64,000 bases of DNA, from NCBI GenBank assembly GCA_002269645.1, contig NIVC01000485.1, positions 1 through 64,000 of the forward strand. Direction: 5' to 3'. This DNA is from Macrostomum lignano (Eukaryota). Positions 13,960 to 58,640 of this stretch are shown here, piece after piece (position 1 is the first letter of the stretch; the number at the start of each line of letters is the position of its first letter). The notes under the pieces were generated by a model. It ran no database searches. It saw only the letters and a list, made by a program, of their open reading frames with translations, and was not told the origin of the DNA. The translations under genes and the position numbers were made by a program.

Positions 13960-13996
13960 GACTAACTAACTAACTGACTAACTAACTAACTAACTG

Positions 13997-14053
<57 letters not shown>

Positions 14054-15248: not shown

Positions 15249-15280
<32 letters not shown>

Positions 15281-36994: not shown

Positions 36995-37405
36995 CACTAC
37001 GTATCGCGCCATTAGAGCTGGGTTTTCAGAATTCTGACGCAAAAAACGCAAATTATACTACTATCTGAAAATGAAGTAAGTAGTATTCGAAAACGCTATC
37101 CTAAGCGTGATATATGGCAATATGTAGTCGTAATAATCCATGTGCTCATATATGTACATTAATCCCATGTACATTAATCCCTATCTATCTCAAATTGGAT
37201 ATGTACATTAATCCTATGTACATTAATCCCTATCTATCTCAAATGTCCATGTCTATACCCAATTCTATATGTACGCAGTATGTGCATTAATCCACATGTA
37301 TAGTGTCATCCCCAGACGGCCCGCGCACACCAAAATTACAACTCGAAACCCTACTACATGTACAATCTCATCCAAATGAGTCAACTAATTGTACAGCTCA
37401 CATCG
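36995..37405 (+). repeat. Left terminal inverted repeat
   Basis: CACTACGTATCGCGCC...GTCATCCCCAGACGGCCCGCGCACACCAAAATTACAACTCGA...CAAATGAGTCAACTAATTGT, inverted at 58256-58640. Confidence 0.92.
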
Positions 37406-37813
37406 TATATAAACTATTTACAAAGAAGATATATTTACATTAAATCAGTAGCATATTACAGTAAATAATTTATGTACAACATTACCAGCGAATAGAATAT
37501 ACAGAAAATTTTACATTGTTTTTCAATATTTTTCTCTTCATAAATGATTTTAAACAGGTCTGACACGCAAAATATGTACAATAGATTTTTACATTGGCAA
37601 TTTCGCCGCATACAATACAAAAATGCTTTATGTACATTGAATTATGTACAACAAATAGATTTACTCTAATAAATTTGGCAATACTACAATGCAAAAATGC
37701 TTTATATACGGCTCGTACATTGACATGCAAATTATGTACAACAAATAGATTTTTTCTGATAAATTTAACAATACAACAATGTACATTGAATCGTCAGTTA
37801 TAATTGGATTACA

Positions 37814-40800
37814 TTATTTATAACCATAAGGCCTGCTGCCGGCCCCGTACACACGTTTTGTCAGGACGCGCTGAAACGTCTTGTCCATACTAACAGCGTG
37901 AATGGTACAAGACGCCTTGTCGCGCCTGAACTGAAACTGCGGCAGCTGCAGAGAGCCACCGTGTAGCAGTGTGTTGCGCAGGTCGTCGCTACGCTCCCGT
38001 ATCTCCGGAGTCAGGCGAATGCCCTTGCATTTCAAGACCTGGCTCCGGACACCGGCCGCATCCTCGACAATGTAAGTGTAGAGCTTGGGCCCTCCACTTA
38101 CAAAGTCGGTCATCCGGCTGCCTGTGGGCACTTCGTCGGTCCACATTCCGAGGCTCGTGCCATGGGGCGGCTCCCATTGGCCCTCGGAATGCCGGTAAAC
38201 GACCCTGTGTGGGGGGGAGAGAGAAAAACGAGATAATTGCTAACTATTTACATGTAATCAATTCTAAAAGAGCAATACTTACGAGTCAGTGTCGCAGTAA
38301 ATGGCCCGTTCGCCGAGCCCCTCCAATGCCTCGTACAGGCGCAGCCGGGCCTGCGTGGTTGTAAAAACACCGATTGGCACGTTGGAGTAGCGGAACGGCC
38401 GCTGATTAAAGTAGCGGTGCCGGTACTCCAGCAGCATAAACTCGCTGCCAATCGGTTCGCAGGCCTTGACTTTGAGGTTGGGGTCGGTCAGCCGGGCGAG
38501 CCAGTCCTCGTAGCTGGATACAATTTCTGTCGATGTCAGGTCGTCACGCTGACAAAATTTACCCCAGAGCCTGCGTGTAAAGAAAAGCTACTGTTAGTAG
38601 AAGAAGAAATCGTTTAAAAATCAATTTATGAATACTTGCTAATTCAAAAAGATTTTCACTACAAAGCGAAGTCCTGGGTTGGGCTCGACCTTGTCCAGCG
38701 TGACGCCCTCCTTTGCGTAGAAATCGGCAATATAGGCGGCCTTGTCTTCATCTGACATGCCGGGGGAGCCGCTCGACTCAGCCTTCAATTTGAGGAAGGT
38801 GCTGACATAGTCACATAGTCCAGTAGGCCAGCGCGTGCACCACCTGCAGCCGGTAGCCCAACTGGAAGGCCTTTCGCAGCTCCGGCGTGGCCCAGGTGCC
38901 AGTCAGCGCTCGCTCCTCGTCTGAGTGGTCGCAGCAGCCGCTGCACTGCTGCTCCATACAGGTGCGGCAAAGCCCAAAAAGAGCTTCTTTTGCACCCTGT
39001 AGGGCAGCAGCGGAATATGCAAATCTGACGGCGGCAGCACTGTCACTTTGGCAATGCCAAAGTAGCTGGCCAGCGCGTCAGAATCGAGCACTTGCGGCGT
39101 CGGGTGGTTCACCGGGTGGCCAATCGGGTACGGGTCTTTCGACTGCACCGTCGGGTACAGAGAGACCTGCCAGTTGAAATAAAACATTATTTTTCATAAA
39201 CTGTATTTTTGCAAAATATTCTACTACATTAGTAGTATCACTACTCACCACATCCCGATATTTGAGAGTCTCAGTCTCGCTGGCCACAGCATGCGGGATA
39301 AAACACTCTACGCGGCCGCCGTAGAGCGCATCTTCCATCTTGAGCGGAGCGCGCAGATGTGCAGTTGCGGCAATGAAATCAGCCTGCGATGCCAATACAG
39401 TGTCGTATTCGTGCTCCCAAATGACTCGAACACTGTAATTGTGCCGCTCCAACTCGCGAGTGAACCACTCAGTCTCGTGGCGGATATGGCTCAGAGGCTG
39501 CCGTTTGAGCGGGTGGACAACATCCTGATCGGGCATGCACTGCTCGCAGCCATGGTAGAAACAGCCATGAAACTGCAAGACAGTGTTGGTGGCCTCATCA
39601 AAGCCGTCCACCTTGCGGCCGAGAATGACCGCCTCACCGCCAGTCGAGTCGCAGGTTCGCAGCCGCCCACCAAATTCGGTGGCATTCAAATAGGCCAGCC
39701 ACTTGCGCGCCTTGAATGACTGCTGGTCGGCCTGCCGGGCAATCACGCCGACCGAGTTGGGCTCCATAAATCGGGTGGTGAAAACGGCCATTGCCAAACT
39801 GGCAATCGTGTTGGCCTGTACAAATGGTTCCAGGCCGTCACAAATGTCTCCAATTATTGCCCTGTACTTGATGCAGCCCTCGCGAAGCAGCACCGTGTCG
39901 CTCAAACAATAATCGAGATATTCCCGATTAAAGTTGAACAACTCGCCCTGTCGCGAGGCCAGCCAAGCACAGATGGAGCCGTAATCCTTGTTTGTCTTGC
40001 CGCCATAATAATCAATAGTCGGGTAGGAGCCCACGTAGTTCCAATTAGCCGGCTTGTTGAACTCGTGGGGAAAGGTCCCCTTGGCCAGCTTTGTGTCGGC
40101 GAGCCCCAGAGCTTTGGGGAATTGCGCAAGCGGGATTGGTATAAAATTAAACGAATCTTTAAATACCAATTTATCAACCGTCATGCTCATTAGCCGGCTG
40201 CCCTGGAACAGTACTTGGGGCCGCTTCTTGGCCAGGCCGTTGAGTAGAGCGCCAAGCAGTAAAAACGAATCGTAGCCTGATGCATTATGCGCGACAACAA
40301 TGGCGCCGCCTCGGAATGTGGTGCTTAGCCAGGCGAAAAAAGCATTCAGCGAGGCCGGGCCCACAGCCACAAAATCGGCCATTTGGCAGGCGCAGTCTGA
40401 AGGGCTGACGCAATTGGAGAATTCCTTCCCCAGATCGCGGCCAGTCAGACAATTGGCAGTGCTATGCAGGCCATTGCAGAGGCGGCAAGTCTCGCGCGGA
40501 AATGCCCGGCCGGAACAGGTCTCGCAACACGTGACGGCAGTCACCAGATGCACGTGATGCTGCTTCTCCTCATCCGTGTATGTTTCCGTATCGTAGAACA
40601 CGTACGGCATAGTTGAAGCTTTCACTTTGGAAGCCTTGACGAAGCACAAATGCGAGCCGGCCTCGTCATACTGTTTACACAGTGGGCACTTGATGTGGCC
40701 GCACTTGTGTTCCGGCTCCTTCTGGCCGGGTTTTAGTTCTTCGCAATACCCGCAATTAGCGCAGACTCGGACAGAGTCGCAGCGCGACCGCCCAGCCCGG

Positions 40801-41988
40801 TTTTTCCGGCGGTGGTTGTCAAAACACTGCTGATTGTAACAATTCAATCCGCAGTCTGGGCAGCGCTTGTAGTCGCACCGCAGGCTCTTGCAATTGGCGC
40901 CGGGCGCTTTACACTGAGGGCAGGTGTTGGAGCACTTGTGTTCTCCAGACACGCAGTCGTACGGCTGCTGGCAGCGGTCGCAATAGCGACGGGCACCGAA
41001 AAATGGCGGCACCTTGCACACCGCGTTAGTGCTCGCCAATTAGGTGCAAATTCAGCACTGTGCTGCCTGGTAGGGCGTACACACATGTATTGCCCTCCTC
41101 GGCACTGTACACACGAACGCCGAAATCCCGGCCTGGTGACTGGGCGTTCAGGACAGCCAACAGTTGGGGGAGCATGTCAACCCCGAAAGGCCCGTCCTGT
41201 GCAATGGTTGATAAAGACTAAAACATTTGTATATTAATAAAAATGCAAATTAAAATGTGCAAGATTATTTTTTACTCACCGAATACAATTTAGCAGCAAT
41301 CTGAAGCTCCCCAGTCAGCTTCTTCTGCATTGTGGAGTCGGCCTTGACGGTTTGCCATGTAGTCCTAGTAATGGCCTTGGCCTGCAGATCGGCGAAAGCC
41401 TTGGCCACCACCAGCGCCCTGATGAGGCAACGTTTGTCGCTGTTGGCGATGACGACATAGCTGTTGCCCATAGCATGCCTGGCCTGAATATGCTTTTCCG
41501 CCGCATCTAGGCTGCCGCAGCCGCCCCGCGGAACCCAGGCCTTGAGCAAAAACAATTTAAAGTTGTTACCCAAGACGCTGGAGTCCGACTGCAGAACCTT
41601 GTTGATATGTTTAAATATCAGCTCTGCAGTGAAGCGGCTGCGGCGGACGGGCGGGACATTGATGGCGAGCATCATATTGTCCGCCGTCAGCTTAGATGCG
41701 ACGAAATCATCTGCCCGCAGGTCCTCACAAAGTGTAGAAATTACTTCTGTGAATGTGGCGCGAATATCAGTGGTATCGGTGAATGATACCACATACTCAT
41801 ACCCTGCGGCTCTAAATTTAGGCAGGGCTTTCGCCCCGCCAAGATGCGCAATGAAGCCTGAAAAAATGAAGGGTTTTGAAATTAGAATTGCGAGAGGCGG
41901 CGGGTGTATGACTCATGAAATAAAATCAACTCTTTACCATCGCCTTCGACAGTGTCGGGCTGGGGCGGGGGTTGAAATTGAGCCAAAT
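37814..41988 (-). pseudogene. Spliced protein-primed DNA polymerase B, ~1260 aa; exons 41988-41938, 41857-41280, 41196-39249, 39166-38640, 38570-38283, 38204-37814
   Basis: Exo motifs FYDTET, AHNASGYDS, YCLSDT; Pol motifs YRDV|VSLYP, KIFLN.LWGKF, YCDTDS, KCKG; C-terminus RPYGYK. Lesions: frameshifts ~41028, ~38978, ~38812 and a stop at the 38640 junction. Confidence 0.9.
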
Positions 41989-42000
41989 CTGCAATAAAAT

Positions 42001-44244
42001 GGGTCGTTCTCAAAGCTAGGTCACAACTTTTTGTTATTGCAAAAAAAGTTTATACATCGACCAAAAATCGTACAAAAAAAATTATTTCGACAATTTCTGT
42101 AAGAAGCTGCTACTAAAACCACAAGAAAACTTGAAATTGAGAAGAAATCAAGGCTATTTGTTATTCTTTGTTGCGGAAAATAAACGACAAAAATATTAAA
42201 GAGAAAATAAAATTTTCTTCTATTTTTATTTTAAATATGCAGTTAAATTTCTTTTGCAAAAATAAAAGAACAAGAAATTGACAAAGGAAATGTTTTTGAG
42301 CACAGCATTTTGTTACTCTGCTCTAAATCCCAGACATTTAAAATTATCGTGTGCGAAAAAGTGCGAAATTATTATAGCATGCACTCGAAAGGACTTCGAT
42401 CAGTTTAACTAATCACTGAATTAAGAAGTCTAAATAAGTCTTGAAAGGTTGAATTAAAAATCAAGTTTTCACTATGTATATTTTCAAAGTCAAGATGATT
42501 CGACAAATAAAGAATGTTCATTTTTACGGTGAATAGAATTGTTCATTTTTACATTAAATATAATAAAATCTAACTAATAATAGAAAAAGTCAGGGAACTA
42601 TCCTTGAACACCAAAAAGCACATTGTGGATTTAATATCAACTGCATGTTCCTTAATAAAGGAATTCGGATTCTAGTATATATTTGATTATTTGTAGCATA
42701 ATTTCTGAAAACTATAACTTGCTTGATTTTACTTTAAGTACTTATTACATTAATACTTATACCAAAGCTACATGTACTTAAAATAAAAAATTATAGTTAC
42801 TTATTAGACATTTTACTCCAATTAACTTGAAATAATTCAAATTTATTTTAATTAATTCATTTTTTGAAACTTTTTGGAAAATAGACAAAATTGAATTATT
42901 TAATTACCAAAAACCTACTAGCTTAACTAAAATAGCAATTAGTCTTTAAGAAAAGAATTCACTTGTTAATTGAGAAAAATGAGGATGTGCGAGGTGTAAA
43001 AATGCGAAAGAGCATGCAGGAAACAGAGACAAACAAAAATGTAGGTAAAAGACACTGCACATGCACATAATATGATAACCAGACATAATGTCACGTTATT
43101 GGCGTAGCGGCCAGCTATGCGGTGACCCTTAAAAGGGCCGTTTTAGTCCCAAAATAAGTTGAAGTCAATTCTTGTAAAGCGGATTTTGTAGCGGAGCACT
43201 TGGCGATAAAGGCAGGAACTGCCGTAGTTGTCTTTATTGTTAATATCAGTATTAAGCTTGGTTGTTACTGGCAATAAACAGACTATAGCTTTCTGGGCAC
43301 TGGCGGCTGCAACAATGGGTTGAATATAATTTGGATATGAAGTCAAGTGGCAGGCGAATGACACAATGGCGACGTGACGTGAGCAGTGGCTATGAGCACA
43401 GTGAAGGCAGTGAAACGTAGTGGCGAGTTGGCGTCGGTCGTGGCGTGAAACAGTCAAGTAAGTGTGTGAGCAGGCTGGCCCAGACAGAAGGGCCGTGGTG
43501 AGAAATAAGGAGGCTCGAGGCAGCCAGACAAACAGATAAGACAGCTAAGAGGCCGCAGGGAAGGAAACAAGGAACAAGCGGGGAGTGCCGCCGCCAGGCG
43601 GGGGGGGTTTAATAAAAGAGCGCAGAGGGGGTAGCGCGAGCACGAGTGATTTCATTGGCTGGCGAGAGAACTTAAAATTATCGATCGTGCCAATTTTATA
43701 CGGTTGCGAGAGAGGATAGCAAAATATACAATGAATTATAAATTGCCACAAAATCGTTGGGCACTACTACAAGTAAACGTCGCAATAAACGAATGGAAAA
43801 GTTTAGTTGAAACGGTGAAACTGAAGGGTTGAATGACTATGGAGAACAGCAGTCCAACGGCCCTTTTCGGGACCACCTTAAACTGACAACGTCACAATAA
43901 TGCGCACACTGAAACACCAGTAGCAATGACGCCCAAGCTTTTGATGATCACAAGCGAAAAGGCAAAACCCAGCCATCAATCAAAGAAGTAGACTTTAGCA
44001 CGCATCTTGAGTGCATCACGCATTTTTTGCAGAGAAGCTCGAAAATTAACATTGTATTCTGTGCACAACCACCAACTGCGACAGGGTCTGCCGGGGGATT
44101 TGTGGGCACGCGGTCGCGGATACAAATCGGAGGAGTCGCTGACCATTCTGAAATTACTAGCTAGTACATGTAATTTTGTGTATTAATATATTTAGCCCGC
44201 TTTATTTCTATGCTCTCGTCCGCCTCTCGTTAATGCATCCCCAG
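42001..44244. mobile_element. 2.24-kb interspersed repeat, copy B, inserted 10 bp upstream of a pPolB splice acceptor
   Basis: Near-identical to 10257-12502, including the solo LTR. Confidence 0.85.
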
Positions 44245-47200
44245 GACCCCAGACTCTTGCAATAATCAAACTTATGATCGAACTATGCATGGCTTCCGTC
44301 CCTCGCTTTGAATCTCTCACCTCCCCATAGTTCCATCAACCTTACCTTAGTGGCTTCCTATGCAAAAATCATCCCTCCGCATCTTACACAGGCTACTTCA
44401 GGCTGTAGACTGTACTACACTTTTACTTCAGTAATTAGTTGCGCTATAAGGAATCTACATGCATTTTGCTCGCAGCGCAGCGCGTTGCTCAAAGAAGTTT
44501 AGTTCTATCTAGATATTCTAGTAATTTCATGTTTTTCGATAGACTAGAGCTCATGAGATGAGAATTCCATTAACTAGTACATTTAATATGAATGAACTGC
44601 GTGTGTGTGTGCTGTGCATACATATGTATAATATACGAGTAGTTTATGGGCCAAACTATTGTGTGGCACAATTCTTGGCATCACTCAGCAGGCACAAGAT
44701 GCAGTTAAGCAGCGCACGAAAATTCTACAAAAGAAATTGAGCCTGGTTGAGGTGATGCGAGGAGGCAGATCCACACAATCTCAGTGAATACACCAGACTG
44801 CACCAGATACGAGTCCAGTCGAATGAGTGCACTGGTCTAAGCAGCACACGCATGTCCTTCTGACAATGACGGCACCTAGCTTCGTCCAAGCCTTTGCCAG
44901 CGTCACTGACAGCGTTAATACTACCATGCAGTGCCACCTGCAGCACCGACAACGGCAATTCCTCCAGTTAGCCCACAACAGTGGCTAAACTGAGGGACAG
45001 GGAACCTACCCACAGAAGACACACACATACACACACAGCACCGGCAGCAGCACTCTGACAGCATAACCTAAAGCTCCATGAGCTCAGTTTTCAAGCATTG
45101 AAGAAGCAGAAGCAGTCATCTTGGATCCAGGGATCAGGAAGAGTGTTGCATGTCCGACATGTGCTGTTTCCGTGGCAAAAGGTGATGGAGCAAATTAATC
45201 AACACTTACTATCTAGCTCGTATTAAGACTAAAAAACTGAGGCAAGCAGGGATTAAACCAAAGAAAATTTTTTACTATACTTTTTTACCATACTTTTACT
45301 ATACTTCTATAGTATAGTAGAGAGGTACTCTATTTAAATGCAGTAAGAAGTGAAACAAATTTATATATTTAATTATTAAATTAAATTAATTCAAGGTAAA
45401 TAACTAATTTAACCAATTTATTAGGAGTATTTATTATTATAATAAATTGATTTTTATACCTTACACGAAATAAGCTCTACATTCATTTCTTAGCTTGGGG
45501 CCCATCTGTATAAGGTCAGTTTCTTCAAAATGCTGATTAATTAATTAAGGCCTGTTGTCTTTACTTAAATTTATAAGGGCATCTTAGAAGTTAATATTAC
45601 TATATAATACATGTATAATAGTATTACTATATTATAATAATATAGTTGCAATTTTAATGACTATTAAATAAGTTTAAATGCTTCCCCTATTGACTCTAAA
45701 TATATGGTATCTTTCCCTTCAGAAAAAATTAGCATAGAATGACTTGATGAAAACAAAAAAATCATTTAGAGATACACATTTGCTGATCATTCAGGTCAAA
45801 TTTCAAGGTCCAGTTTTGCACATGTTTCTCTGTAGCTTGGTTACAAGGATTTTAATAAAAATATAATAAATATGTCCAATGAACTAACTGATACATAGCC
45901 AAATTGAAGTATTTTCAAAAACAAAAAAAATCTTTTGCTCAGTTTACTTTACTGGATATCTGTGTAAAATTTCAGCTCAAAAGGTGCTCCATGGAGAATG
46001 CTAGTGTGGTTACAGGATATTTATTTTGTGCTTCAAAGTAGGAGTTTATTGCGATGCATGGTTGCTTTTAATTATTTTTATCAACAATAGTGCTCTATTT
46101 CATAACAATTTTTTACAAAAAGATAATAAGACATGTTTTTCTAATTATCTGCATCAAAATGTATCATTTTAAGCACGCATTCTAGACGTCAGCCGAAAAA
46201 TACATTTTGTGAGACGCAAAGAGGCTATCCCACCGGAAATGCTAGGCGTACAGTTAAGCGTCTATAAAATCATTTGTAGTGCAGTTTATTGAGCTTTAAA
46301 AAATTCTTAAATTAAATTTATATAAGCTTTAATTTTAAATGTAATATAGCAAGGTTTCAACACAACAACAACTTTTTTTAGCTACAGACATCTTGTAGTA
46401 TCAAAAATTAACATCGGTGAAATGATTGAATTTGAATTTTTTCAACGCTAATTATCGCTTAATACCGCCAGATGATTAAAAACACTGTTGTATGATAAAG
46501 TTCAACCCAAAAATTATCTTTATTGACAGATAAAAGTGTCCTATTATTTTCAATATGGCAGTAATAATAGTAAATGTTTGGAAAATTGTTAAAATTTTTG
46601 CTCCTCCTAGAATTTGCGAACGACCCAAATGCGCATGGTGACTAAAATTCTGACCGCTTGGAATTTTACAACTGTCAAAAATTTTTTGATTGATTGCCTG
46701 CAGCAGCAGCAATTTTATCGCCCCACCCCAAGCAACAAAAATCGGCGAGTTGTAAAAACCCCAACTCGGCACGTTCCGACACGTAGCAACAAAAGAAATG
46801 TGGGGTTGATTGAACCCCGCTTCGAATTTTAGGCTGTCAAAAATGTTTGATTGATGACCCTGATAACACTGATCCTGCCGCAGCAGACATTGTAAAATTT
46901 AAGAAAACCCCCTATCAGCACGTGCCTCCATTGTGCCCCCTTGACACCTAGCAACAATACCGCGCGGTCGCTTTTGGATTTTTAAAGCTGTCATAAATGT
47001 CTGATTAATAACCCTCACTGTAGCAGCCAAGTTTTATTGCTTCCAAAACCCCTACAATTACCGGTACAGCGGTGATTACATCATCATGCCCAAAATCGGG
47101 GGTTGATTTTATCACTGCCGCCAGAATACCGGCCTGCCCACCCCGCTGAGTCACGTTCGCGCTGCAGGATTGCTGTTTTTGCTTCTCTCTAGTTCAAGGA

Positions 47201-47602
47201 TTAGTCACATAACCCCTGAAATTTTATGACTATCCTCTACAGGCATTATCCGGCTATACTGCTGCTGCTGCGGATATTCTCTAAAACTCTGTTATTTCAA
47301 CAGGCCTGAATTTGAGAAATCCAGTTCCTCCCTTTACTTCAACATCTATGTCAAGAGGAAATTCAGAAATTTTAAGTCAAAATGAATGTTAAAGATGAAA
47401 AGCAGCTGTGGTTTCAAAGAAAGCCCATATTTCAACTAGCGAAAAAATTTGCAAATCACACAAATGCTAAAGCAATTATACAGCCCTATTTTTCTGAATT
47501 CAGATTTTGCAAATGCTAAAAGCATAGTTTTACACACGCAGAGACTCACCCAGCGGGCGTCCCCTCTTTGCGGCCGGAGGCTGATGCTGTTGTTGCTGTT
47601 GC

Positions 47603-49469
47603 TTCTTCTTCTTCTTCTTCTTCGTCTTCAGCGCTCGCTTTACCGGCGCGGCGGCGCCGAGATTTGCGGGGGCCATCGCCCCATGCTCCGAAGGAGCGAG
47701 AGACATTTTCCCGGGTTCCGGAGGAGCTCCTCGTGATCGTTCCCGACCAGGGCCATCCGTCGAGCGTCTCCCCGGTGGCAGTGAAGTAGCGCATGGGCGC
47801 TGTCGTCGAGTTCTCCGCAGTCCGGGCACTGCGGATTATCGATCATACCGAATCGGTGCTGGGTCTCGGCGCAGAGCATCGTCATGCCTGCGCGAAGCTG
47901 GCACACCGCCGTTTGCTCCCGCCGGTCTCTCGCTTTGAAGTCCGGCCAGGGTTGCGGCAGGGTTTCTTTCTCCAGGGTCCGGCGATCGCGGCGAATGGCT
48001 GCTTTTGCGGCGTTGAAGGAGATGGGCACTTCCTCTTGGGGCAAGCCTCTTGCCATGCCGGCCGCGCGGTCCGCCGCTTCATTAAGGCTGATGCCGCAGT
48101 GGGCTGGCACCCAGATTAGTTCTATGTCGGCCGTTTCGTTGATGTCTAGCATGTGGCGCCAGCAGTCCGTACCGGTCTTAGTCGCCTGGGCTAGTGGTCC
48201 GGCCCCTAGTGCTGTCAGTGACGATAAAGAGTCGCTACATAGGCGAATCTTCTTTTCGCTCGGGCTGCGGTTGTTCTTAATAAAAACCAGTGCTTCGCGG
48301 ATGGCTATCATTTCTGCGTCAAATGAGCTACAGATGATTCCGGCCGGGGCCTTGCGCACATGGCTCGCCAAGTTCGTGCAGGTTATAGCGGCGCTGCCGC
48401 CGGGTCCGGTGCCGTCCGCCACCGATCCGTCTGTCCACACGCTGATGTCAGCCTCAGGCAGTGACTGCAGAAACTCCGTTGCCGCCGCGCTCCGGGACTC
48501 CTGGGGGTCCGTGCGGCGGCATCGGGCCGAGATGTCCAGGCGGATGTTAATGTCCCGTGTGTCGCACTCCCACGGCGGGATGCCGGGGCTTACCGGGTCG
48601 CCTCTTTTGTGGGAATCCAATATGGCAACCGACGGCAGCTCCAGTGCCGCCCTCCTCCAGCAGTTCCGGAAGGGGCGGGTGGCGTCCCGCGGGTCGATGA
48701 GGTTCAGCGAGTTCGGCTGTGCTTCGTCGTCGGCGCCGCCGTCTCCGTGGGTGCGGCCGTGATCGCGTGCCAAAGCTTCGTAGGTACGGTTTTTCAGTCT
48801 AGGCCTGGTGTTCCGCAAGGCTACTTGTCCCGCCGAGACACTCGGGTCGAGTCTGAGGACTCTTTCCCTTAGGCGTGCCGCCCTCTCGGACGCGATGAAT
48901 GAGAGCGGTGTGAGCCCGGCCAGTTGTAGGACTGAGCGGATGTTGGTCGGCATGATACATCCCGTAATCAGTCTCGCGCACGCGTTCTGCTGCTGTTCAA
49001 TAGCTCGTCTGGTGGAGGGGGCGGCGCCGCATAGCCAGGTACCTGCGGCGTACTCGGCCACAGCGCGGACGGTACTGATGTAGGCTGTTCGGATCGTTTG
49101 TAGATCAGCTCCGGTGCTCCTGCCGGCCATCGCTGCGAGCGGTCGGCGTCTGGCGCACATCTTGGCGCGGACTGTCGCGGCGTGCTGCGCGAAATTGAGT
49201 TGACCGTCTAGGCGAACACCGAGGTAGTTCGGGGCTGGGTCAAAGGCTATTGGCTTGTCATCGATGAGCAGGTTGAGTCTCTTTTTGCCGTTTGATTCCT
49301 TTGCGTCCAGCGTGAAAGTGCCGTACACGCTCTTTTCCACGCTGAGCTCCACTTTCCATTCCTTGCACCACTGTGAGACGGCGTTCAGCGCGGGTTGCAG
49401 CTTCTCTTCACATGTGTCCAGAGACCTGTTAGAGGTCAGGAGGGCGCTGTCATCGGCATAAAGACGATA
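47603..49469 (-). mobile_element. 5'-truncated non-LTR retrotransposon A (I/Ingi-like): RT C-terminus, RNase H, CCHC
   Basis: LYADD at ~49451-49465, YLGVRLD, RNase H WTDGS / SDSLS / WVPAHCGI..NE.AD, CPDCGELDDSAHALLHC; (GAA)n 3' tail; ORF 47640-49352 is uninterrupted. Confidence 0.9.
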
Positions 49470-49492
49470 TGCTGTTGCTGCTGCTGCTGCTG

Positions 49493-52400
49493 TTGTTGTT
49501 GTTGTTGTTTTGGTGGTACGCGCCCAGGCAGAGCTAAGGGCAGTGTCTGGCCAGCGCTATCAACCCGAGGGGGTCGGCGGAAATGCTGCTGATGTCTGTC
49601 GTGGGTCCTCCAAGAAGGCGGAGCCTGGTGCCAGCGAGAGCTGGGCAGTCAAGCCAGTGTTCCAGGTCATCGCAGGGATGGCCGCAGCGGTGACATGCCG
49701 GGTCGACGGCCGGGTCGACAATGCTGCGATACGCGTTGAAAAGAGTGCAGTGACCTGAGCGTAAGCGCGCAAGAAGCACCGCATCGGCACGGTTGGTGAT
49801 GGAGTCCTCTTCCAATTGACGGTTGAGAAGCCGGTACGCGTGCCGGGTGCGCTCGTGGCGTATCGGGGGATCGAGGACGGATCTTCTGATGACGTTTTTG
49901 GCGCTGTGGATGCTGATCTGACTAGCGGGAGACACGAGCGTGGTGGCCTCTTTGGCTGCTTGGTCGGCCAGCTCGTTGCCAGGAATATTCTGGTGGCCCG
50001 GAACCCACTGCCAGGTGATTTCGGCAGATGCAGTAGGTAGTGCAGATCTGATTCTGGGGTTGCCGCTGGCCAGAGCGCGGAGCATAGATTGGCTGTCGGA
50101 GCAGATGTTGGTAGCCGCGGTGAGAGCAGCTTGGTTGATCCAGCCGATGGCGAGAGAGGCGACGCGAAGCTCCTCTTCGAACGAGGATGTGGAGGGCGCG
50201 CCGCGCTGTTGAAGAGTCGCCAGGATGATAGGGTGGGCTGGGTCACCGGTCGTGACGATGGCTGAGGCGCCGCCATTGGTCGTGCCGCCTGATGCCGAGC
50301 CGTCGCAGTAGATGGTGATCAGGCCTGGGAGGTGGCGGATAGTGTCGATGGCCGTGGCTGTGCGCGCGGGACCGGGTTCCGGCAACGCCATGTCGACACG
50401 CACGTCGGTAGAGAAAGGGTCCCAAGGCGGCGGACGAGCAGTGCAGATCATGGCGCGCGGCGTGACCGAGCTAGCTATGAGTGGCAGCAGGTCGGTGACG
50501 TGGTTCCGCCAACTGTTCCTGCGTAGCCTGTGCGCTGTGTTACCAGTGGCGGCAATGCGGCACGGGTGAGAATCCGGGAGGCGCTGAGCTCTTTCGAAGG
50601 CCGTCAGGCATATAACATTGCTACCAGTGCGGACGGAGCAGATGCCAGCTTCCAGCCTAAGGGCCTCAACCGGTGTCGTGCGGTGTTGTCCTGTGACAAT
50701 ACGAAGAGCTGCGTTCTGCGCTCTCTCCAGCTGTTGAAACGCGGATTCAGAGAGCCAAGGGTGCCAGGCCGGCGCTGCTAAGTTAATGATGCTAAGTTGC
50801 ATGGCACGGTAAATGCGGATCAGGAGTTTTTTGGACCAACCCCATTCCTTGGAGGCCAGGCAGGCGAGGAGACGGCAACGGGAAGTGGTCCGATTGCACA
50901 CGTGCTCCAGATGGCTGCGGAAACTCAGAGTGCGGTCCAGTGTGAGGCCCAGCAGCCGAGGCGTTGGATTGTGCCGCAGGTTCCGGCCTTCGATAGAGAT
51001 AGCCGGGGACCAGGCGGCTTCGCTGGTGTCCGTGGAGAAAAAGGCGGCCTCGCTTTTGTCTGGGTTTAGGACCATTTTGTGCTCATTGCTCCAGCGGGCC
51101 ACGTTGTCGAGTGCTCTTTGCACAGCGCGTTGAGCCTCTAGCTTGTTGCGGTGGCGGGCGCGGAGGGCGATGTCGTCGGCATACATGGAGATCTCTGCCG
51201 GCGGGTTGACCACGTCATTGACCGTGTCAATGAAAATAAGGAAGAGAAACGGAGCGATGACCGATCCTTGCGGGAGGCCCTGGCGCATGATAACCGGTGA
51301 GCTGCGAGGACCGTGGAGTTGCACGCGGGCAATGCGATGGTGCAGAAAGGCCGCAGTCCATTTTATAAAGACAAGAGGGACGCGTTTGCGTGCCATAACG
51401 GTGATGAGGCGCTCACGCCACACTTGTCAAGGCTTTACAGAAATCAAGCAGAGCAATGATCGTGCGTTCAGATGGTTTGAGGTTCATCCCGTCGCTGATG
51501 TCTTGGGTGACTCTCAGGAGCTGATCCTCGCAGGAGTAGTTGGCCCGAAACCCCGCCTGGTTCGGGGAGATCCAGCCGTGGCGCTCAGCCAGGTGGTGCA
51601 ATCTAGTGACCAGGATGCGCTCGAGCAGCTTGACAATACAGGATGTGAGGCTGATGGGGCGAAAGGCCGCGATGTCCCGAGCTGACTTTCCAGCCTTGAG
51701 CAGGGGAATAATAATCGCGGTGCGCCAGGATTGAGCGACGGCCGCGTGCTGGAAGGACCAGTTGAAGAGACTAAGCAGCTCTGCGCGGGCGAGCGGGCCA
51801 AGGGCCTTAATGAACCGAGGCGTGACCTCGTCGGCGCCAGCAGCGCCGTTAGCACGCTGGTGTTGTATGGCGGAGTCCAGTTCCTGCTCGGTGATGGCGG
51901 CGTATCCGTCGTGGGTCGAACCTGGGAGCGGAAGGGGAAGCCGAAGGATGGCTTTGGCTTCTCGGATAGTAGCGCGATCCGAATGGGAAATGTGGTACCT
52001 GCTGACAGAGGCGTACTGCTTGGCAAAGGCGTTGGCTTTGTCTCTAGGGTCTGTTAACACTTTGTTGCCGACCTGGAGGGCCTCATTAGGGCAGTTGGAG
52101 TCCGGAGTGCCGTTAAGGCTGCGGATGAACTTCCACGCCTTGTTCGAGTTGGGCTCTTTCTCAAGATCGGTTATCGTGTCACGCCAAGCAGCCTCTTTCG
52201 TTGCCCTGGCAATTTTGTGAACGTTGGCGCAGGCGCTGAGCCAATCTTCTCTATTCTCGCCAACGGAGCGCCTGAGGCGGTTACGGAGCTTAATCGCCGC
52301 TTTGAGTTCAGGGGTGAGCCAGGGACGCGGTCTGTGCGAGGTACGGACTTTGCCGATGCAAAGGTTTGCCGCTTGCATGACTATATCATTAAAACGTTTG

Positions 52401-52789
52401 GCTCTGGCGTCAAAGGTAAGATGCTCTTTGTGAAGGGCTTTAAATTTGTCCTCGACGACCGTTTGGAAAGCATTCCAGTCGACCCCTTGTTTGCGCCATA
52501 TGAGACGGCTTTGGGCCTTAGGCAAGGTCCTAACCTTGAGGTCAAGGCGGATCACAATCGGCGTGTGATCACTGCCGAGGTCATCGGAGACTTGCCAGGT
52601 GCATTTGCTAGCCAGCTTTGAGGAGGCGAAGGACACATCCGTTGAGCTTTCGCCACCTGTGGCTTTATTGACTCTGGTGGGCGAGCCGTCGTTAAGGATT
52701 TCCAGTTGCGAGTCGATGGACCAGTCCAGGAGCGTGGAGCCTCGTTCGTCCTGGGGCTGTATAGGGTCCCAGGCCGGAGAGTGCTCTGT
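49493..52789 (-). mobile_element. 5'-truncated non-LTR retrotransposon B (I/Ingi-like): APE C-terminus, RT, RNase H, CCHC
   Basis: APE GSDH, FRPISLTSC, GLPQGSVIAP, MYADD, RNase H YCDGS / WVPGH..IPGNELAD, CHRCGHPCDDLEHWLDC; (AAC)n tail; frameshift near 51420. Confidence 0.92.
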
Positions 52790-53149
52790 GCTGCTGCTGC
52801 TGCTGCTGTTGTGAGGGGCCTGCTCGCCCCCACAAGGCTGAAATTGCTGCTTCAGCGGCCGAACGTTTTGATGCCATGCTTCTGCTGCTGCTGCTGTGCT
52901 ACTGCGATTGCGGCTGATGCTGCTGTGATTGCGACTGTGACTGCTGATGCTTGCGGTTTCTGATGCTGCTGCCGTTTGCTGATGTTGTGACTTCTGCTGT
53001 TGTTGCTTCTTCTGCTGCTAGCTGTGCTGATGCTGCTGCTGTGTTGCCGCTGTTGCAGGCTGATGCTGTTGAAGCAGTTGATGCTGCTGTTGTGGCTTCT
53101 GCTGCTGCTGGCTGCTTTTGCTGATGCTGCAGCAGCAGCTCTCACCCGC

Positions 53150-53157
53150 TTTATATA
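53150..53157 (-). promoter_or_regulatory. Candidate TATA box for the polyQ exon
   Basis: TATATAAA on the minus strand, followed by an ATG-free CAG-rich leader up to the first ATG (AGCATGG) at 52877. Confidence 0.45.
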
Positions 53158-53449
53158 CCCTGCGAGAGGGAGGATGGGGTAGGGGCACGAGAGGTGTGCG
53201 TGATTTTCTTTCCCGGGTCTATATTTTCTAGATTAGTGTACGATTGTACACTCGGTTCCGCATTTGGTATAGAAAAGTTGGGGGTCGAAAATACCCCACC
53301 AATTCTTTTCTCATGCGGTATTTTATTGGATCTGAGCGGAGCCACCCAACCAGCATTCTCGCAGGAGTGAAAACTGCTGCTCCGCCAGAGTACAGTCTCT
53401 TAATTAGGAAGACCGCTTCCTCTTGCAGCATGTCTTTTCGACTTGAATT

Positions 53450-53990
53450 GGATAGAAAACGGTGTTTATTCAAAAGACAATACCTTGGCGGACCAATAAT
53501 AGCTAAATACAGATGAAAAATATGAAAGATGACTTCTGTGGTTTTTAAGGCCCGCCGGTCTCTGCGAGAAAATGGTTGTTAAAAATCGCTGTATCAATTT
53601 AAGAACCTGGGAGAAATGGGGCTTGTGTGCAAAGCATCTGATTGACAGAGGCTCGGGGAAGAGAAATAGTCGATGAAAAGCTCTTGCCATCATCCAAAAT
53701 ATCCATCAAAGAGTAATAAAGGTGACAGCCCCTGTCGCAAGCCAAATCAGAGACAGAGTTTTCTACTTCTGTTTACGTAATGTTTAGGGATGGACCTGGG
53801 GTTATAGGGACAGAGAGTCAGTTATGGCATTTACGCGGTAGTAAAGAATTGCCTTGGTGAGGCTTGGGTAGGTGTTGTTCTCTCCATATTGGCGAACATT
53901 AATAGTCCTGGGTTGAATTTTGAATATGGCTAGAATGTATAGCGGCCGGAGAATCGTTGAATTGAAGGGTGAATCAACATGCAAAGTATG
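53450..53990 (-). pseudogene. Highly degenerate non-LTR retrotransposon remnant (related fragment ~57780-57900)
   Basis: GLRQG.LSPLLL at ~53711-53743 and SPFNS(DH)-like APE C-terminal peptides at ~53960 and ~57810. Confidence 0.4.
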
Positions 53991-54467
53991 CAACAAAACC
54001 GATTCAGTGCATCTAAAAGAGGCTGTTGTGAGCTTCAGAACTGAGAATAACGTTTAAAATAGCATCAATGGCATGATGTAGTAATCGAAATCAATTGAAT
54101 GCTGAAAACTTTAGGTTTAATAGGGTAATTGCAGACTGTGTTTTTAGCCCCAATTTTTACAGTGTCTATAGAATATTTCCCCAGCTTCTTGGACAATGTA
54201 CATGCCTATTTGAATGACAAAACAACATTTTTTGATGGTATATTAGCTAAAATTATGATTTCTATTGATAAAATGGCAGATTTTGATCCATAAAGTAAGC
54301 ATTTTAACGTTAAAAATCGAAAAATGAGGAAAACTCGTGTTTTTCATGAAAAAATTGCATTACTAGCAATTTAGCCTCCATTAACTATTTCTTGGGCTGG
54401 GCTGTAGACTTCCGTGTGGGATTCATTCCTGCTTCGAAGCCGTCTCAAGTAGTTGAAACGGGATAGC

Positions 54468-56063
54468 TACGTTTGCCTGCGGGACGTTTGCCAGCCGACG
54501 TTTGCCTGCGAGACGTTTGCCAGCCGACATTTGCCAGCCGACGTTTGCCAGCCGACGTTTGCCAGTGGGACGTTTGCCAGCCGAAGTTTGCCTGCCGGAC
54601 GTTTGCCAGCCGACGTTTGCCTGCGAGACGTTTGCCAGCCGACATTTGCCAGCCGACGTTTGCCAGCCGACGTTTGCCAGCGGGACGTTTGCCAGCCGAA
54701 GTTTGCCTGCCGGACGTTTGCCAGCCGACGTTTGCCTGCCGGAAGTTTGCCAGCCAAAATTTGCTAGCCAATATAAAGCCAGTCAGTGAAAAATTTGATA
54801 CTGAAACATTCGCAGTTTAGCGGTTTGACAAAAACCGTTTTTACTCCAACTTTTTGACGGTTATTCGCATGTATACAAGTTTGAAAGCAAAATATATAAA
54901 TTAATGCAGTTCATCAGTCTAACGTCTAATATCTAGTTTAACAACGATTTTGGCACAACATATCAAAAGATGAACATTGGGTTTGCCTCGTATGAAAGCA
55001 ATAACAATTGTTGTGCTGAAAAGATGAAAACTTCCTATCTCCCTATGGCCTTGAAAACATTTTTCATAGATTTCGAGTGCTGCGTACTTCTACTTTAGTA
55101 GTCCTTGGCATGACTAAGCTTTGCATACGTAGTGTCTAGCGCTTGCTATTCTACTAGCTTGCTACTGGCGGCTTGTCTGGCTATTCAGCTATATAGCTTA
55201 CTATAAAAACGTACCGCATTCGACTCGTCTACACATGTACGTTGAGATCGCGGTTTCCTTGCTTACTTGAGTAGTAATACAACAGAATTGGAATCAATTT
55301 GCTTACTTTTAGATCTCCCAATGAACTGAGAAATATATGAGCCAGAATTACCGCTCAGCAGCTCTTTTTGTTTGCCTCATAACTTAATCGCTGGAGATTC
55401 CCGTTGTAATCTGCGCGTCTTCTTTCGCACATCAAAAATCAAACATCTCAAACTGGGAAAAACGATACACAATTGTCAAAAGTAAACAATATTTTAACAT
55501 TCAAAGAAAATCGTTGTTAAACTGGATATTAGATGTAAATCTATATAAATTGCATAATATATAAATTGCATAATGCATAATTGCATAATTTATATAGATT
55601 TTGCATAAATTTCATAATTTATAGATTTTGCTTTCAAACTTGTATATATGCAAATAACCGTCAAAAAGTTGGAGTAAAAACGGTTTTTGTCAAACCGCTA
55701 AACTGCGAATGTTTCAGTATCAAATTTTTCACTAACTGGCTTTATATTGGCTAGCAAATTTTGGCTGGCAAACTTCCGGCAGGCAAACGTCGGCTGGCAA
55801 ACGTCGGCTGGCAAACGTCCGGCAGGCAAACGTCGGCTGGCAAATGTCGGCTGGCAAATGTCGGCTGGCAAATGTCGGCTGGCAAACGTCGGCTGGCAAA
55901 CGTCGGCTGGCAAACGTCCCGCAGGCAAACGTCCGGCAGGCAAACTTCGGCTGGCAAACGTCCCGCTGGCAAACGTCGGCTGGCAAACGTCGGCTGGCAA
56001 ATGTCGGCTGGCAAACGTCCCGCAGGCAAACGTCGGCTGGCAAACGTCCCGCAGGCAAACGTC
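54468..56063. mobile_element. Foldback-type element with ~0.5-kb inverted arms built from 14-15-bp tandem repeats
   Basis: Arrays of ACGTTTGCCAGCCG at ~54470-54750 and inverted at ~55765-56063; inner unique TIR portions at ~54750-54950 and ~55510-55765; no TSD. Confidence 0.85.
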
Positions 56064-56065
56064 GT

Positions 56066-56946
56066 AGACCCCTGTGACCCTTTGCATTTTGCGCCTTTTT
56101 GAGCCAGCCGATGCCCAGGTCTAGTATCCTATCTGCAACCATAGGCATTTCCGCTAGCTCATGTAAGAATTTAGTTTGCGTGTAACTGGGAGCACCATAG
56201 CATAATCTCAGGGCTAGATTTTGGGTTTGTTGGAGTTTGGTGATGCTGTCATTTCTGAGTACTTGGAGAATTGGTGCCCCATAGGTCATGGTGCTCTCAA
56301 CATATGCTCTGTAGAGCATTTTTAGTGTCTCACTGCTGAGTTTAGTAAGTTTGGAGATTCGATGGATTGACATAACAAGTGCCCTGCATTTGGTGATTAC
56401 AGCCTCACAGTGGGGTTTCAGGGTGAGTTTATAGTCAAGGTTGATGCCCAGAAATTTCACTTCTTTTTGGTAGATTAAGGACGCGTCACCTAGTTTCAGT
56501 TCTGGCCTAATGTCCCTTCTAGTCGGGTTCGCTGGGGCATAGGAAAAAACTATGGCTTGACTTTTGCTAGCGTTTATTTTGATACCTTGTTCTCCGCACC
56601 AGGCCCAAAGGCTGTTTAGGTAGGGTTGAACTACATTTCGGAGTTCTCCGAAGGACTTGGCAGATGCCCAGATGGCCATGTCATCTGCAAATTGACTTTT
56701 CCTAATGTTTGGATGACCCGTATGGGGCATTGTGCTAATGAAGAGCAGGTACAAGAAGGGGCTGAGTATACCTCCCTGGGGAACGCCTGCCATAATTTGA
56801 AACGAGTCACTGAGGATGTTGTTAACTTTGACCCGAAAACTCCTGTTCTCAAGGTAGTTGGAGCAGATCCTGGTGATGGCTGTTGGCAAGTCTATCTGGA
56901 ACATTCTATACCTAATATAGTTGTGGACCATCGTGTCAAAGGTTGT
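56066..56946 (-). mobile_element. Jockey-like LINE RT fragment
   Basis: FDTMVH, GVPQGGILSPFLY, QFADD, FLGINLD, GAPSYTQ; its 3' end is replaced by the foldback element. Confidence 0.85.
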
Positions 56947-58255
56947 GCGGGATTCATTCCTGCTTCGAAGCCGTCTAAGGTCAAGTTAAAAACGACATTT
57001 GGACACATTAGCTGTTGAAATTATGGTTTCCAGTGATGAAACTACTGATTTTGATCAACAAAGTCTGCATTTTAACGTAAAAATGCATAAAAAATGGTGA
57101 AAAATTGTATTTTCTTATGAAAAAATGCACATTTCTAGTCATTTAGCTTTCAAAATAACCAAATTTCTTGTTTGAAATTCCAACTTTACTTTGTATGGAG
57201 AGGTCAGTGCATGATTCATTCCTGCTTCTAACAGATTAAACCGACCGTCTCAAAGACCAAGTCTGAAAGCTTCAAGTGAGAAGGCATGGGGAGGCGGAGA
57301 GGTAGAATTGAATATTTAAATATGTGGACTTCACTACTTCTAGTATAACGCAAGGGTGACTTATACAATTTACAAAGTTTAGAATCAAGTAAATCAGAAT
57401 TGCATGCGGTGATTCATAGGCTGTGTACATTTACAAATGCAGCTGGGGTTTGTCAATGCAGGTAGAGGTAGAGGTTGGCGGACTCGGATTTGTTCAGATT
57501 CTTGGGGTTGATGTGTGCATTAAAAGTTGGTTTCTTGCTAACTGCTTCTATAGGGGTATGGATGACGTAATCGGAGAAGAGAGGGGTTTTGCTGAATGAA
57601 GTTTAATATAGGGTCTGTGCTGTGGAAAGATCTGTCTGTACACTGAAAATGGAGAGAGGGTCGAAATTCCTTGGCATTTAGAAGGGGAGAGAGAGAACAG
57701 GGGCGAGTGTTAAAATTTAGCTCGATTTGCTAGGGTCTGCGCTGTGAAGACGAGTCTGGTGAACATCGGAGGGGTGGCTGTTTTCGAACAGTCTTGGGTT
57801 GAATTTTGACTATGGTCCGAGTTAAAGGGTGATTCAAAATTTAGTATAGGAGCTTCGAGGGGTGAGGATATACCGTACAGCAGTAGCAGTTGATAATTAC
57901 CAATTAAAGGTCTTGTATCATCCGCACTGTCAATATAGAATTATAAAGCACTGCTTCAACACAGTCCTGCATTTGGGGTCTGACTTGGGGAGAGGCTTGG
58001 ATGACGCAACCCCCACCCCATCGCTTGGCGAGAGTTTGTACAGGCCCGCCTCTATATGATAGTATGTGTATTTTATAAGTGATTTTGAATAAATTATCAG
58101 CATATTCAAACCTACAGTCTCCGAGGGTGAAAATGTACATACCTAATTTTTGGGGTATGTGGCGGATATGAGTATAGAGGCTATCGATGTACATATAGAC
58201 TCCGACCAGTATTATTCAAATCTGTCTGAGAAATGTACATTGGAAATATACATTT

Positions 58256-58640
58256 ACGTTGTGAGGTACACAATTAGTTGACTCATTTGGTAGTAGTAGA
58301 TGAGATTGTACAACTGTACATGTAGTAGGGTATCGAGTTGTAATTTTGGTGTGCGCGCGGGCCGTCTGGGGATGACACTGTACATGTAGATTAATGCACA
58401 TACTGCGTACATATAGAATTGGGGATAGACATGGACAATTGAGATAGATAGGGATTAATGTACATGGGATTAATGTACATATATGAGTACATGGATTAAT
58501 ACGACTACATATTGCCATGTATATCACGCTTAGGATACCGTTTTCATATACTACTTACTTCATTTTCAGATAGTAGTATAATTTGCTTTTTTTGCGTCAA
58601 AACATCTGAAAATCAACCGTTAAAGGCGCGATACGTAGTG
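58256..58640 (-). repeat. Right terminal inverted repeat
   Basis: Ends GGCGCGATACGTAGTG; reverse complement of the left TIR with indels and substitutions. Confidence 0.92.

Follow-up and report, generated by a model that had tools for sequence, protein, structure and literature searches.

Polinton/Maverick elements (Eupolintoviridae; 'Alpha adintovirus' PolB class) combine an OTU domain with PF03175 in their polymerase (PMC8502044). Vertebrate Mavericks have terminal inverted repeats (TIRs) averaging 402 bp, 96% of their loci are degraded, and intact copies are intronless. Reduced relatives are on record: the non-autonomous or capsid-less Polintons 1N1_DR, 2N1_DR, 1_EI, 1_GI, 2/3_HM and 1_TV (PMC4028283, Table S1), and ten C. 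elegans loci with a protein-primed family B polymerase gene (pPolB) and a TIR but without integrase (10.1101/2024.01.15.575659). A transition from virus to pure transposon has been proposed for Polintons (PMC4028283). In full-text literature, subscription papers and Repbase aside, we found no description of a Macrostomum Polinton or of an element combining CACTA ends with pPolB.

The window analyzed here is a 64,000-nucleotide stretch of Macrostomum lignano (contig NIVC01000485.1). We propose, with a probability of roughly 0.6, that the element at 36,995-58,640 belongs to an intron-containing Polinton/Maverick family specific to Macrostomum and is a dead, non-autonomous copy with an internal deletion. 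The inverted repeats of about 400 bp, 21.6 kb apart, that the initial annotation had described were confirmed: the left TIR (36,995-37,423, plus strand) pairs with the right one (58,240-58,640, minus strand) in blastn (E 2e-110), and the span encloses the pPolB gene. The arms are identical in 343 of 367 aligned columns (93.5%) and also differ by indels, among them a 49-bp tandem unit that the left arm has in one additional copy. Both end on the identical base, starting with CACTACGTATCGCGCC, and their length of ~400-430 bp agrees with the vertebrate mean and falls within the 100-1500 bp range of Polinton/Maverick TIRs. The left arm contains TGTACA-rich tandem units, and the same hexamer recurs in the adjoining AT-rich subterminal region, which is also the pPolB 3′ UTR (37,424-37,813; GC 0.26). 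Together, 36,995-37,813 holds 12 TGTACA sites, a density of 14.7 per kb; the interior has 0.2 per kb. Neither a comparison of the TIR with phage records nor an Rfam search gave a match.

The outermost 5 bp are CACTA on the left and TAGTG on the right, the latter followed by a 27-bp minisatellite. The 5′-CACTAC start differs from the vertebrate-set Polinton end motifs (AGT)2, (AG)3 and (AC)3A, invertebrate end motifs lying outside this comparison. No target site duplication (TSD) of 5-8 bp, which in Polintons is mostly 6 bp long, was seen at seven end offsets (-3 to +3), where the sole match was 2 bp at offset -2, and none of the 3-bp CACTA/EnSpm type was seen at the true ends; the flanks may be rearranged. 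In animals, CACTA duplications measure 2 bp, and CACTA TIRs are short. The initial annotation had overlooked these CACTA-like ends and the missing TSD, as well as the spliced and broken state of pPolB across 37.8-52.9 kb.

Such ends raise the question of whether Polinton replication genes lie here within CACTA/EnSpm ends and were moved by an EnSpm-type DDE transposase, encoded in longer copies or acting in trans, much as in Teratorn (piggyBac plus herpesvirus) or casposons, or whether a Pack-CACTA captured a Polinton pPolB. The termini are exactly the CACTA...TAGTG motif that defines the CACTA/EnSpm superfamily (PMC4158355), repeated 6-bp motifs are concentrated at both ends, no integrase was seen, and a TIR-end peptide in another gene model, P0007, points to a second insertion with an identical terminus. 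However, no DDD/E transposase or ORF2 occurs in the window copy or in the 47 gene models of the family, the true ends have no 2-3-bp TSD, and TIRs of ~400 bp are Polinton-like. The terminal C/G may also belong to the flanks; the AC-T-AC repeat of the remaining 5′-ACTAC would then be well fitted to protein priming by a jump-back mechanism. We regard this origin as quite unlikely, and we are equally doubtful of its general form, in which Macrostomum self-synthesizing transposons would have kept a spliced pPolB and a PC4-like protein, shed integrase and capsid, and come to integrate through an EnSpm transposase acting on CACTA-type ends.

It is improbable that the two TIRs derive from separate insertions, or that one end was rearranged, so that a 21.6-kb unit never existed. 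Apart from the lack of a TSD, this would agree with a coding-like frame in the left flank (98 bits in the codon-usage scan) that is cut at the TIR and has no continuation beyond the right end, with arm differences that are greatest at positions 17-40, with large segmental rearrangements in the window and with the nested copies implied by P0007. On the other hand, the arms have diverged by 6.5%, in keeping with the 5-10% by which the gene differs at the protein level from its closest copies, a single gene is coherent over 15 kb, the window has only these two arms, and a flank deletion after insertion explains the missing TSD equally well. A pre-insertion site was looked for and not found. The left-flank frame has no Pfam, PHROG or meaningful PDB match; in the Atlas it leads to unnamed viral and LamG-like clusters.

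The pPolB gene is a seven-exon pseudogene on the minus strand with six spliceosomal introns, three of which interrupt catalytic motifs. Its largest frame matches PF03175 (Pfam, E 1.7e-15), and motifs Exo I-III and Pol A-C of a protein-primed family B polymerase are present across the exon pieces. The stop codon at 37,814-37,816 lies ~390 bp inward from the inner edge of the left TIR and outside the repeat. Exon 7 (37,814-38,204) carries the KxY motif, the C-terminus and the stop, and exon 6 (38,283-38,570; PHROG 1907, E 7e-10) runs from the end of motif B to motif C (YxDTD), which intron 6 splits. Exon 5 (38,642-39,166) extends from the second half of motif A to motif B, with frame breaks near 38,990 and 38,815 and a stop plus a damaged splice donor near 38,640. 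Exon 4 (39,249-41,196), 95% identical to model P0001 and with a frame break near 41,030, encodes the end of a vOTU-like domain, a Cys/His-rich region, Exo I-III, a VSR-like insert and the first half of motif A. Exon 3 (41,280-41,857) holds a terminal-protein-like domain and the vOTU Cys, and the 51-bp exon 2 (41,938-41,988), with AG/GT borders and phase recognizable, is a 100% match to P0001-P0003 and P0007.

Exon 1 appears to be split by LINEs. Its probable 3′ piece (47,550-47,597, minus strand) encodes polyQ and a basic NLS-like motif and ends in a GT donor in the phase of exon 2; the same motif is spliced to pPolB in model P0009 (weak alignment, E 7). The stretch at 52,790-53,157 (minus strand), with a TATA-like box at 53,157-53,151, a CAG-rich leader and an ATG at 52,877, is the putative 5′ piece. 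The native part of intron 1 (46,631-47,549, minus strand) is non-coding, internally repeated and common to four other copies. With three frame breaks, one stop and the split exon, the gene has at least five lesions.

Most of the remaining DNA had been ascribed to recognizable secondary insertions or AT-rich sequence, and the insertions can now be delimited: one 4.6-kb TIR element, three LINEs and one foldback make up ~12.4 of the 21.6 kb. A 4.63-kb non-coding element in intron 1 (42,001-46,626) has short GGGTCGTTC TIRs and an AAAT target duplication. Its left-hand 2.24 kb recurs at 10,257-12,502 with 99.8% identity, and models P0001-3 and P0038 are continuous across its empty site. Two nested, 5′-truncated RT-RNase H LINEs (47,598-52,789, minus strand; Pfam RVT_1, RNase_H and Exo_endo_phos_2) lie within the exon 1 CAG/CAA tract and have GAA and CAA tails. 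A third 5′-truncated LINE with RT (54,446-56,987, minus strand) has a target duplication of ~28 bp and contains the 1.6-kb foldback (54,469-56,064).

Removal of these insertions leaves ~9.3 kb, consisting of the ends, the pPolB pseudogene and ~3.9 kb without coding signal, which is too small to accommodate genes for an integrase, an ATPase, a protease and a capsid. The native upstream DNA (53,158-54,445; GC 0.40) is non-coding, its longest frame within shuffle range. The right subterminal DNA (56,988-58,239), TGTACA-rich from ~58,030, is likewise non-coding. No meaningful Pfam match of any kind, integrase, ATPase, protease or capsid included, was obtained from 99 of 99 stop-free frames of at least 45 aa in the non-polymerase pieces, a scan that is weak on short pieces (two of seven true pPolB frames detected). 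PHROG gave nothing in ten tested non-polymerase frames and nothing beyond pPolB across 20 frames, and tblastn of 228 non-Macrostomum pPolB matches found nothing in these pieces; 23 long or partial matches, scanned for fused Polinton genes, had none. In the codon-usage scan, held-out true exons of at least 150 bp score 40-99 bits, whereas the four native non-polymerase pieces peak at 6.7-21.4 bits and outside non-coding tiles reach 18.7 (20 tiles), exons below ~100 bp marking the limit of exclusion. A retroviral-type integrase is thus absent from this copy by the Pfam and codon-usage scans, and the ~3.9 kb shows no coding signal for packaging ATPase, protease or major or minor capsid protein, a result obtained with no dedicated capsid profile. 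The module noted as not visible is indeed missing from this copy; an integrase/capsid set hidden in short exons was rejected, there being neither space nor coding signal (save for exons below ~100 bp).

The nearest relatives of the polymerase outside Macrostomum are animal Maverick/adintovirus pPolBs (fish, amphibians, insects, oyster, lancelet), 28-40% identical; identity to anything outside the species stays at or below ~40%, as in a long-branch lineage. The best viral fold match is adintovirus PolB (E 2.4e-26) and the best PDB match phi29 polymerase. In a tree of 88 sequences, made of search matches only, without plasmid, adenovirus or pPolB2 outgroup, the Macrostomum clade and its sister P0060 each have support of 1.00, while deeper nodes have 0.00. 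Across 90 sequences Cys232 never varies and His315 is kept in at least 90%, in agreement with the vOTU dyad described in PMC11161782; residues 84-195 of P0001 form a confident beta-sheet/two-helix domain that also agrees with that work, without a domain-level fold match to OTU. TIRs and pPolB without integrase are likewise the outline of a linear plasmid (mitochondrial or cytoplasmic invertron), as had been suggested. We rejected an integrated plasmid as very improbable: the nearest matches are polymerases of animal Polintons (the tree had no plasmid sequences), the introns are nuclear and spliceosomal, no RNA polymerase gene was found, and the vOTU-like domain seen here is missing from mitochondrial plasmid polymerases.

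The family to which this polymerase belongs is multicopy, with 47 gene-model clusters (copy numbers per cluster are search-result counts) in two subfamilies ~60-67% identical. The introns appear common to both: 18 of 35 subfamily-2 models depart from frame exactly after the motif-A donor, at motif B an intron-like stretch is retained in P0011, and at motif C P0012 comes back into frame. In the terminal-protein domain, a variable stretch of 45 residues is 69% identical, against 95-97% in adjacent sequence, which suggests several recently active lineages. Model P0007 contains a PC4 domain adjoining antisense pPolB (PF02229, E 2e-4). An antisense-compatible PC4 stretch is present in 11 of 35 subfamily-2 models, with 22-23 of 30 positions in three of four tested models (shuffle maxima 14-16); P0012, where the stretch is incomplete, tested negative. 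In both subfamilies, other copies have the PC4-like gene head-to-head with pPolB, whereas the window shows no trace of it. This gene is presumably the Polinton 'PW' gene; the term 'PC4' is absent from the papers searched for it, and the gene is not used as membership evidence. No homologue of the P0007 PC4 region occurs among 2,253 shorter candidate proteins; in the Atlas, PC4 clusters appear at 0.88, as a lead only. At another locus, P0007 has PC4, pPolB and a TIR-end peptide within one gene model, the peptide (E 0.11-0.72 alone) stopping at the same terminal base and passing immediately into pPolB interior sequence, which weakly counters the possibility that these TIRs are independent of pPolB.

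Since other copies have a PC4-like gene that is missing here, the present one most probably arose by deletion, and the gene content of the models does not support a polymerase-only family, the alternative first put forward. It is conceivable, if unlikely, that the family is a naturally reduced Polinton that lost the capsid module long ago and retains replication genes (pPolB, PC4-like protein, perhaps integrase), a purely nuclear transposon life having let introns accumulate and integration relying on its own or another Polinton's integrase. None of the 47 models has integrase, ATPase, protease or capsid domains in Pfam (protein models, not genomic copies; 44 rescanned, three by precomputed domains), including P0010 and P0042, where a host gene model spans the element from end to end in the pPolB orientation, and P0007, which runs from PC4 to a TIR end on the other strand. 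The seemingly shared introns, the high copy number and the nine of 72 Repbase Polintons without MCP, protease and ATPase together are also consistent with reduction. However, pPolB-seeded protein searches miss separate genes, especially on the opposite strand, divergent capsid proteins may escape Pfam, and the flatworm Schmidtea carries full Polintons.

A decayed Polinton, as the initial annotation had offered, is supported by the Polinton-type domain order, the gene lesions, the nested insertions and the lost PC4-like gene. Facing it are the CACTAC ends, the absent 5-8-bp TSD, the 47 integrase-free models and the intronless state of vertebrate Mavericks. In active members, the spliced pPolB polyprotein would comprise terminal protein, vOTU-like protease, Cys/His region, exonuclease, VSR-like insert and palm. 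By analogy with the literature, the protease would free the terminal-protein domain, which would prime synthesis on the element ends, and the TIRs would rebuild the terminal duplex during replication, while the divergently transcribed PC4-like protein may coat displaced single strands. A putative DDE integrase, most likely the usual retroviral type encoded in longer copies, would insert the product. The present copy would have lost the PC4-like gene and whatever adjoined it on the far side; insertion of three LINEs and one TIR element, together with point lesions, would have silenced it, and any movement would have required proteins supplied in trans.

One Polinton remnant by itself would be unremarkable. 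The family is more unusual: a laboratory model animal hosts a high-copy Polinton lineage with non-canonical ends and with conserved spliceosomal introns in its polymerase. Should its intact members prove to have no capsid genes, they would offer a tractable case of the virus-to-pure-transposon transition. If a CACTA transposase integrates the family, it would be a new architecture of self-synthesizing element, a eukaryotic one that pairs a polymerase with a foreign transposase in parallel to casposons and Teratorn (PMC10175614). Only under that chimeric origin would it share with those systems the pairing of a replication module and an integration enzyme from elsewhere, and no such enzyme was found here. 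CACTA/EnSpm elements resemble this one in their terminal CACTA...TAGTG and the repeated motifs near both ends, but here there is no transposase, ORF2 or 3-bp TSD, the TIRs are long and a polymerase is carried. Polinton/Maverick elements share the pPolB family, domain order, ~400-bp TIRs, a pPolB end near one TIR and multicopy state; they differ from this long-branch lineage with its six pPolB introns, 5′-CACTAC ends and no TSD, and from this copy in having integrase, ATPase, protease and capsid. Capsid-less Polintons and the C. elegans remnants are likewise TIR-bounded, 9-15 kb long and devoid of the morphogenesis module, the remnants also of integrase (its status is unlisted in Table S1 for the former), and none of these Polintons is reported there with introns or CACTA-like ends. 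Introns within Polinton-like elements are also known from dinoflagellate eupolintoviruses (PMC12166617); those are recent introner insertions, whereas the introns found here are ordinary, short and AT-rich, and apparently common to two old subfamilies.

The roughly 400-bp inverted repeats that the initial annotation described around the pPolB gene are real. Self-blastn of the window pairs 36,995-37,423 with 58,640-58,240 (E 2e-110; 343 of 367 aligned columns identical), both arms start with CACTACGTATCGCGCC and share the terminal base, and TGTACA reaches 14.7 per kb at both ends versus 0.2-0.3 per kb elsewhere. The motif also fills the 390 bp from the left TIR to the polymerase stop codon, which indeed lies close to the repeat, as first described. 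That these are two unrelated ends is very improbable, and a linear plasmid is hardly credible. No target-site duplication (TSD) of 2-12 bp was found at the true element ends, where a search over seven offsets gave a single 2-bp match. On the left, a coding-like frame is interrupted at the TIR; on the right, the element is followed by a 27-bp minisatellite. The left frame (36,592-36,994, minus strand, 135 aa) is strongly coding-like, ends exactly at the TIR, has unnamed viral and LamG-like clusters as Atlas neighbours and may be either a host exon or part of another element, as an accessory gene; the frame's upstream part is absent from the right flank.

The end motif can be read in two ways that differ by one base, CACTAC or ACTAC. 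CACTAC is the CACTA signature in the available portion of PMC4158355, and the terminal C/G is seen at either end of this element and probably also at a junction in P0007, the gene model of another family copy. With ACTAC, however, the ends would contain the repeat AC-T-AC, which fits jump-back priming. We consider a polymerase element integrated by a CACTA transposase unlikely.

Seven exons on the minus strand make up the pPolB gene. Each of the six splice acceptors ends in CAG, GT donors are present at exons 1, 2, 3, 4 and 6, the exon 5 donor is damaged, and five introns are short (70-83 bp) and AT-rich (GC 0.22-0.38 versus 0.53-0.59 in exons); intron 4 falls within polymerase motif A, intron 5 within motif B and intron 6 within motif C. 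Putative exon 1 comprises a TATA-like box, an ATG at 52,877, polyQ and a basic motif, and its phase matches that of exon 2; this basic motif is also spliced to pPolB in family model P0009. The frame breaks near 41,030, 38,990 and 38,815, an in-frame stop lies near 38,640, the exon 1 repeat tract holds two 5′-truncated RT-RNase H LINEs, and the gene is dead in the window copy. Within exon 3 (41,700-41,830), the terminal-protein-like domain has a hypervariable stretch of 45 residues, whose mean identity among eight subfamily-1 copies (window, P0001-4, P0007, P0038 and P0059) is 0.69, beside adjoining stretches at 0.95, 0.87 and 0.97; 71% of the differences are conservative, and the pattern points to the existence of several active lineages or to diversifying selection.

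Secondary insertions largely fill the remainder of the element, as first proposed: removing 4,630, 5,192 and 2,542 bp leaves 9,282 bp. Intron 1 contains a non-coding 4.63-kb TIR element (42,001-46,626) with short GGGTCGTTC TIRs and an AAAT duplication; four other copies lack this insertion and read straight through the site. Its left 2.24 kb has a 99.8% identical second copy at 10,257-12,502, and its GC-rich patches (43.3-43.6 and 44.7-45.0 kb) reach coding scores of 36-38 bits with no Pfam match. The exon 1 LINEs (47,598-52,789) are different elements inserted successively into one CAG/CAA tract, which suggests microsatellite targeting. A third LINE (54.4-57.0 kb), with a ~28-bp duplication, is split in its 3′ end by a foldback element (54,469-56,064); the ~450-bp arms of the foldback (93%) consist of a 14-bp unit repeated in arrays. 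This LINE insertion is flanked by two tandem units of the native upstream DNA (54,200-54,445 and 56,990-57,230), which are diverged (~76%) and terminate in an identical 16-bp motif.

Elsewhere in the window, positions 1-30,016 contain two large duplications around an OATP transporter gene. One is direct (935-8,598 and 17,106-24,771; 99.2%), and in each of its copies lies a 2.3-kb LTR element that still has traces of gag and protease; the other is inverted (13,874-17,740 and 30,016-26,158; 97.9%). A two-exon gene at 33,900-35,592 (plus strand) encodes a small secreted-looking protein with no Pfam match and carries a 42-45-bp minisatellite in its intron.

Four pieces of native non-polymerase DNA, ~3.9 kb in total, lie inside the TIRs. 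A set of integrase, ATPase, protease and capsid genes needs roughly that much coding DNA, so the set is not hidden there: room is too small and coding signal is absent. The longest stop-free frames fall within shuffle range (three pieces tested); the best codon-usage scores of the four pieces are 6.7-21.4 bits, on a scale where held-out true exons of ≥150 bp score 40-99 and 20 outside tiles up to 18.7, and where single exons below ~100 bp could escape. Pfam gave nothing credible in 99 of 99 stop-free frames, at a sensitivity that also missed five of seven true pPolB frames. These scans uphold the earlier impression that this copy has no integrase or capsid module.

Among the homologues retrieved, 41 clusters are named Macrostomum lignano and six unnamed ones fall in the same identity range; together they form two subfamilies (12 and 35 models). 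Window exon 4 is 90-95% identical to its closest three models and 58% to subfamily 2; beyond the species, identity drops to 28-40%. A FastTree tree built from 88 sequences (nine Macrostomum models representing the window and 79 others; 707 columns; rooted at the midpoint, without an outgroup) places both subfamilies in one long-branch clade (support 1.00) with P0060 as sister (1.00), deeper placement being without support. A 90-sequence profile matches phi29 polymerase and VSR endonuclease, and the predicted structure of P0001 (pLDDT 79.7) resembles phi29 polymerase in the PDB and, as best viral-model match, adintovirus PolB. Cys232 is invariant and His315 nearly so in the 90 sequences, as expected for the vOTU dyad described in the accessible part of PMC11161782. 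Intron positions seem common to the window gene and subfamily 2, judging from gene models rather than DNA: in 18 of its 35 models the frame is lost immediately past the motif-A donor, sequence resembling an intron is kept at motif B in P0011, and P0012 comes back into frame at motif C. In the public models P0005, P0010, P0014 and P0042, family pPolB is joined to ADAM protease, synapsin and zinc-finger genes of the host; these are host-intron insertions mis-annotated as single proteins.

Model P0007 reads, in order, sense pPolB, pPolB in antisense from its 3′ to its 5′ end, a PC4 domain that scores below the curated threshold (E 2e-4; Atlas 0.88), ~340 further residues and a TIR peptide, whose 16 residues match the TIR read outward, stop at the terminal base (E 0.11-0.72) and directly precede pPolB motif-A sequence. 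The simplest reading, which gene models cannot prove, is a copy with head-to-head pPolB and PC4 inserted in another copy. In an independent line of evidence, a stretch just upstream of exon 2, found in 11 of 35 subfamily-2 models, fits the P0007 PC4 domain in antisense at 22-23 of 30 positions in three of four models tested (maxima of 60 shuffles, 14-16). Since the PC4-like gene accompanies pPolB in other copies and leaves no trace in the window, the window copy has lost at least one family gene. Speaking against a full gene set, integrase, ATPase and protease domains are absent from all 47 models (for P0042, among the five of six families listed), including two with a host gene model spanning the whole element, although gene models cannot see separate or opposite-strand genes.

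The anatomy and decay of the window copy were observed directly. Of the two origins first proposed, decay most simply accounts for the missing module, whereas a polymerase-only element sits poorly with the PC4-like neighbour. We favour, at a probability of about 60%, a copy derived by deletion from a Polinton with introns. A family that is naturally reduced and has no capsid is possible but doubtful. The introns, the ends and the 0 of 47 models with integrase leave room for a more novel reading and justify surveying the whole genome copy by copy. The element works like a Polinton: following the available portions of PMC11161782 and PMC8097293, replication would be primed from the TIR ends by a terminal protein released by protease, and displaced strands would be bound by the PC4-like protein. 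Integration might rely on a DDE integrase, itself inferred, supplied from longer copies.

Definitions of Polinton/Maverick-related elements and of the Alpha class of PolB come from section 8 of 10.1101/2023.08.22.554363 and section 7 of PMC8502044; further comparison drew on parts of PMC12166617, PMC10175614, PMC5753468, PMC11131425 and PMC8969392. Within the accessible text of each source, 96% of vertebrate Maverick loci are degraded (PMC8097293), 9 of 72 Polintons are without capsid, protease and ATPase (PMC4028283, Table S1), Schmidtea Polintons are complete (PMC4028283), and pPolB with TIRs occurs without integrase at 10 loci (10.1101/2024.01.15.575659). Because it lacks integrase, capsid, a TSD and the known end motifs, this copy is classified as a defective, Polinton-derived element from a variant lineage and not as a canonical member. 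It has introns, CACTAC ends and no TSD, whereas vertebrate Mavericks, as described in the same portion of PMC8097293, have intronless genes, a 6-bp TSD and AGT/AG/AC ends.
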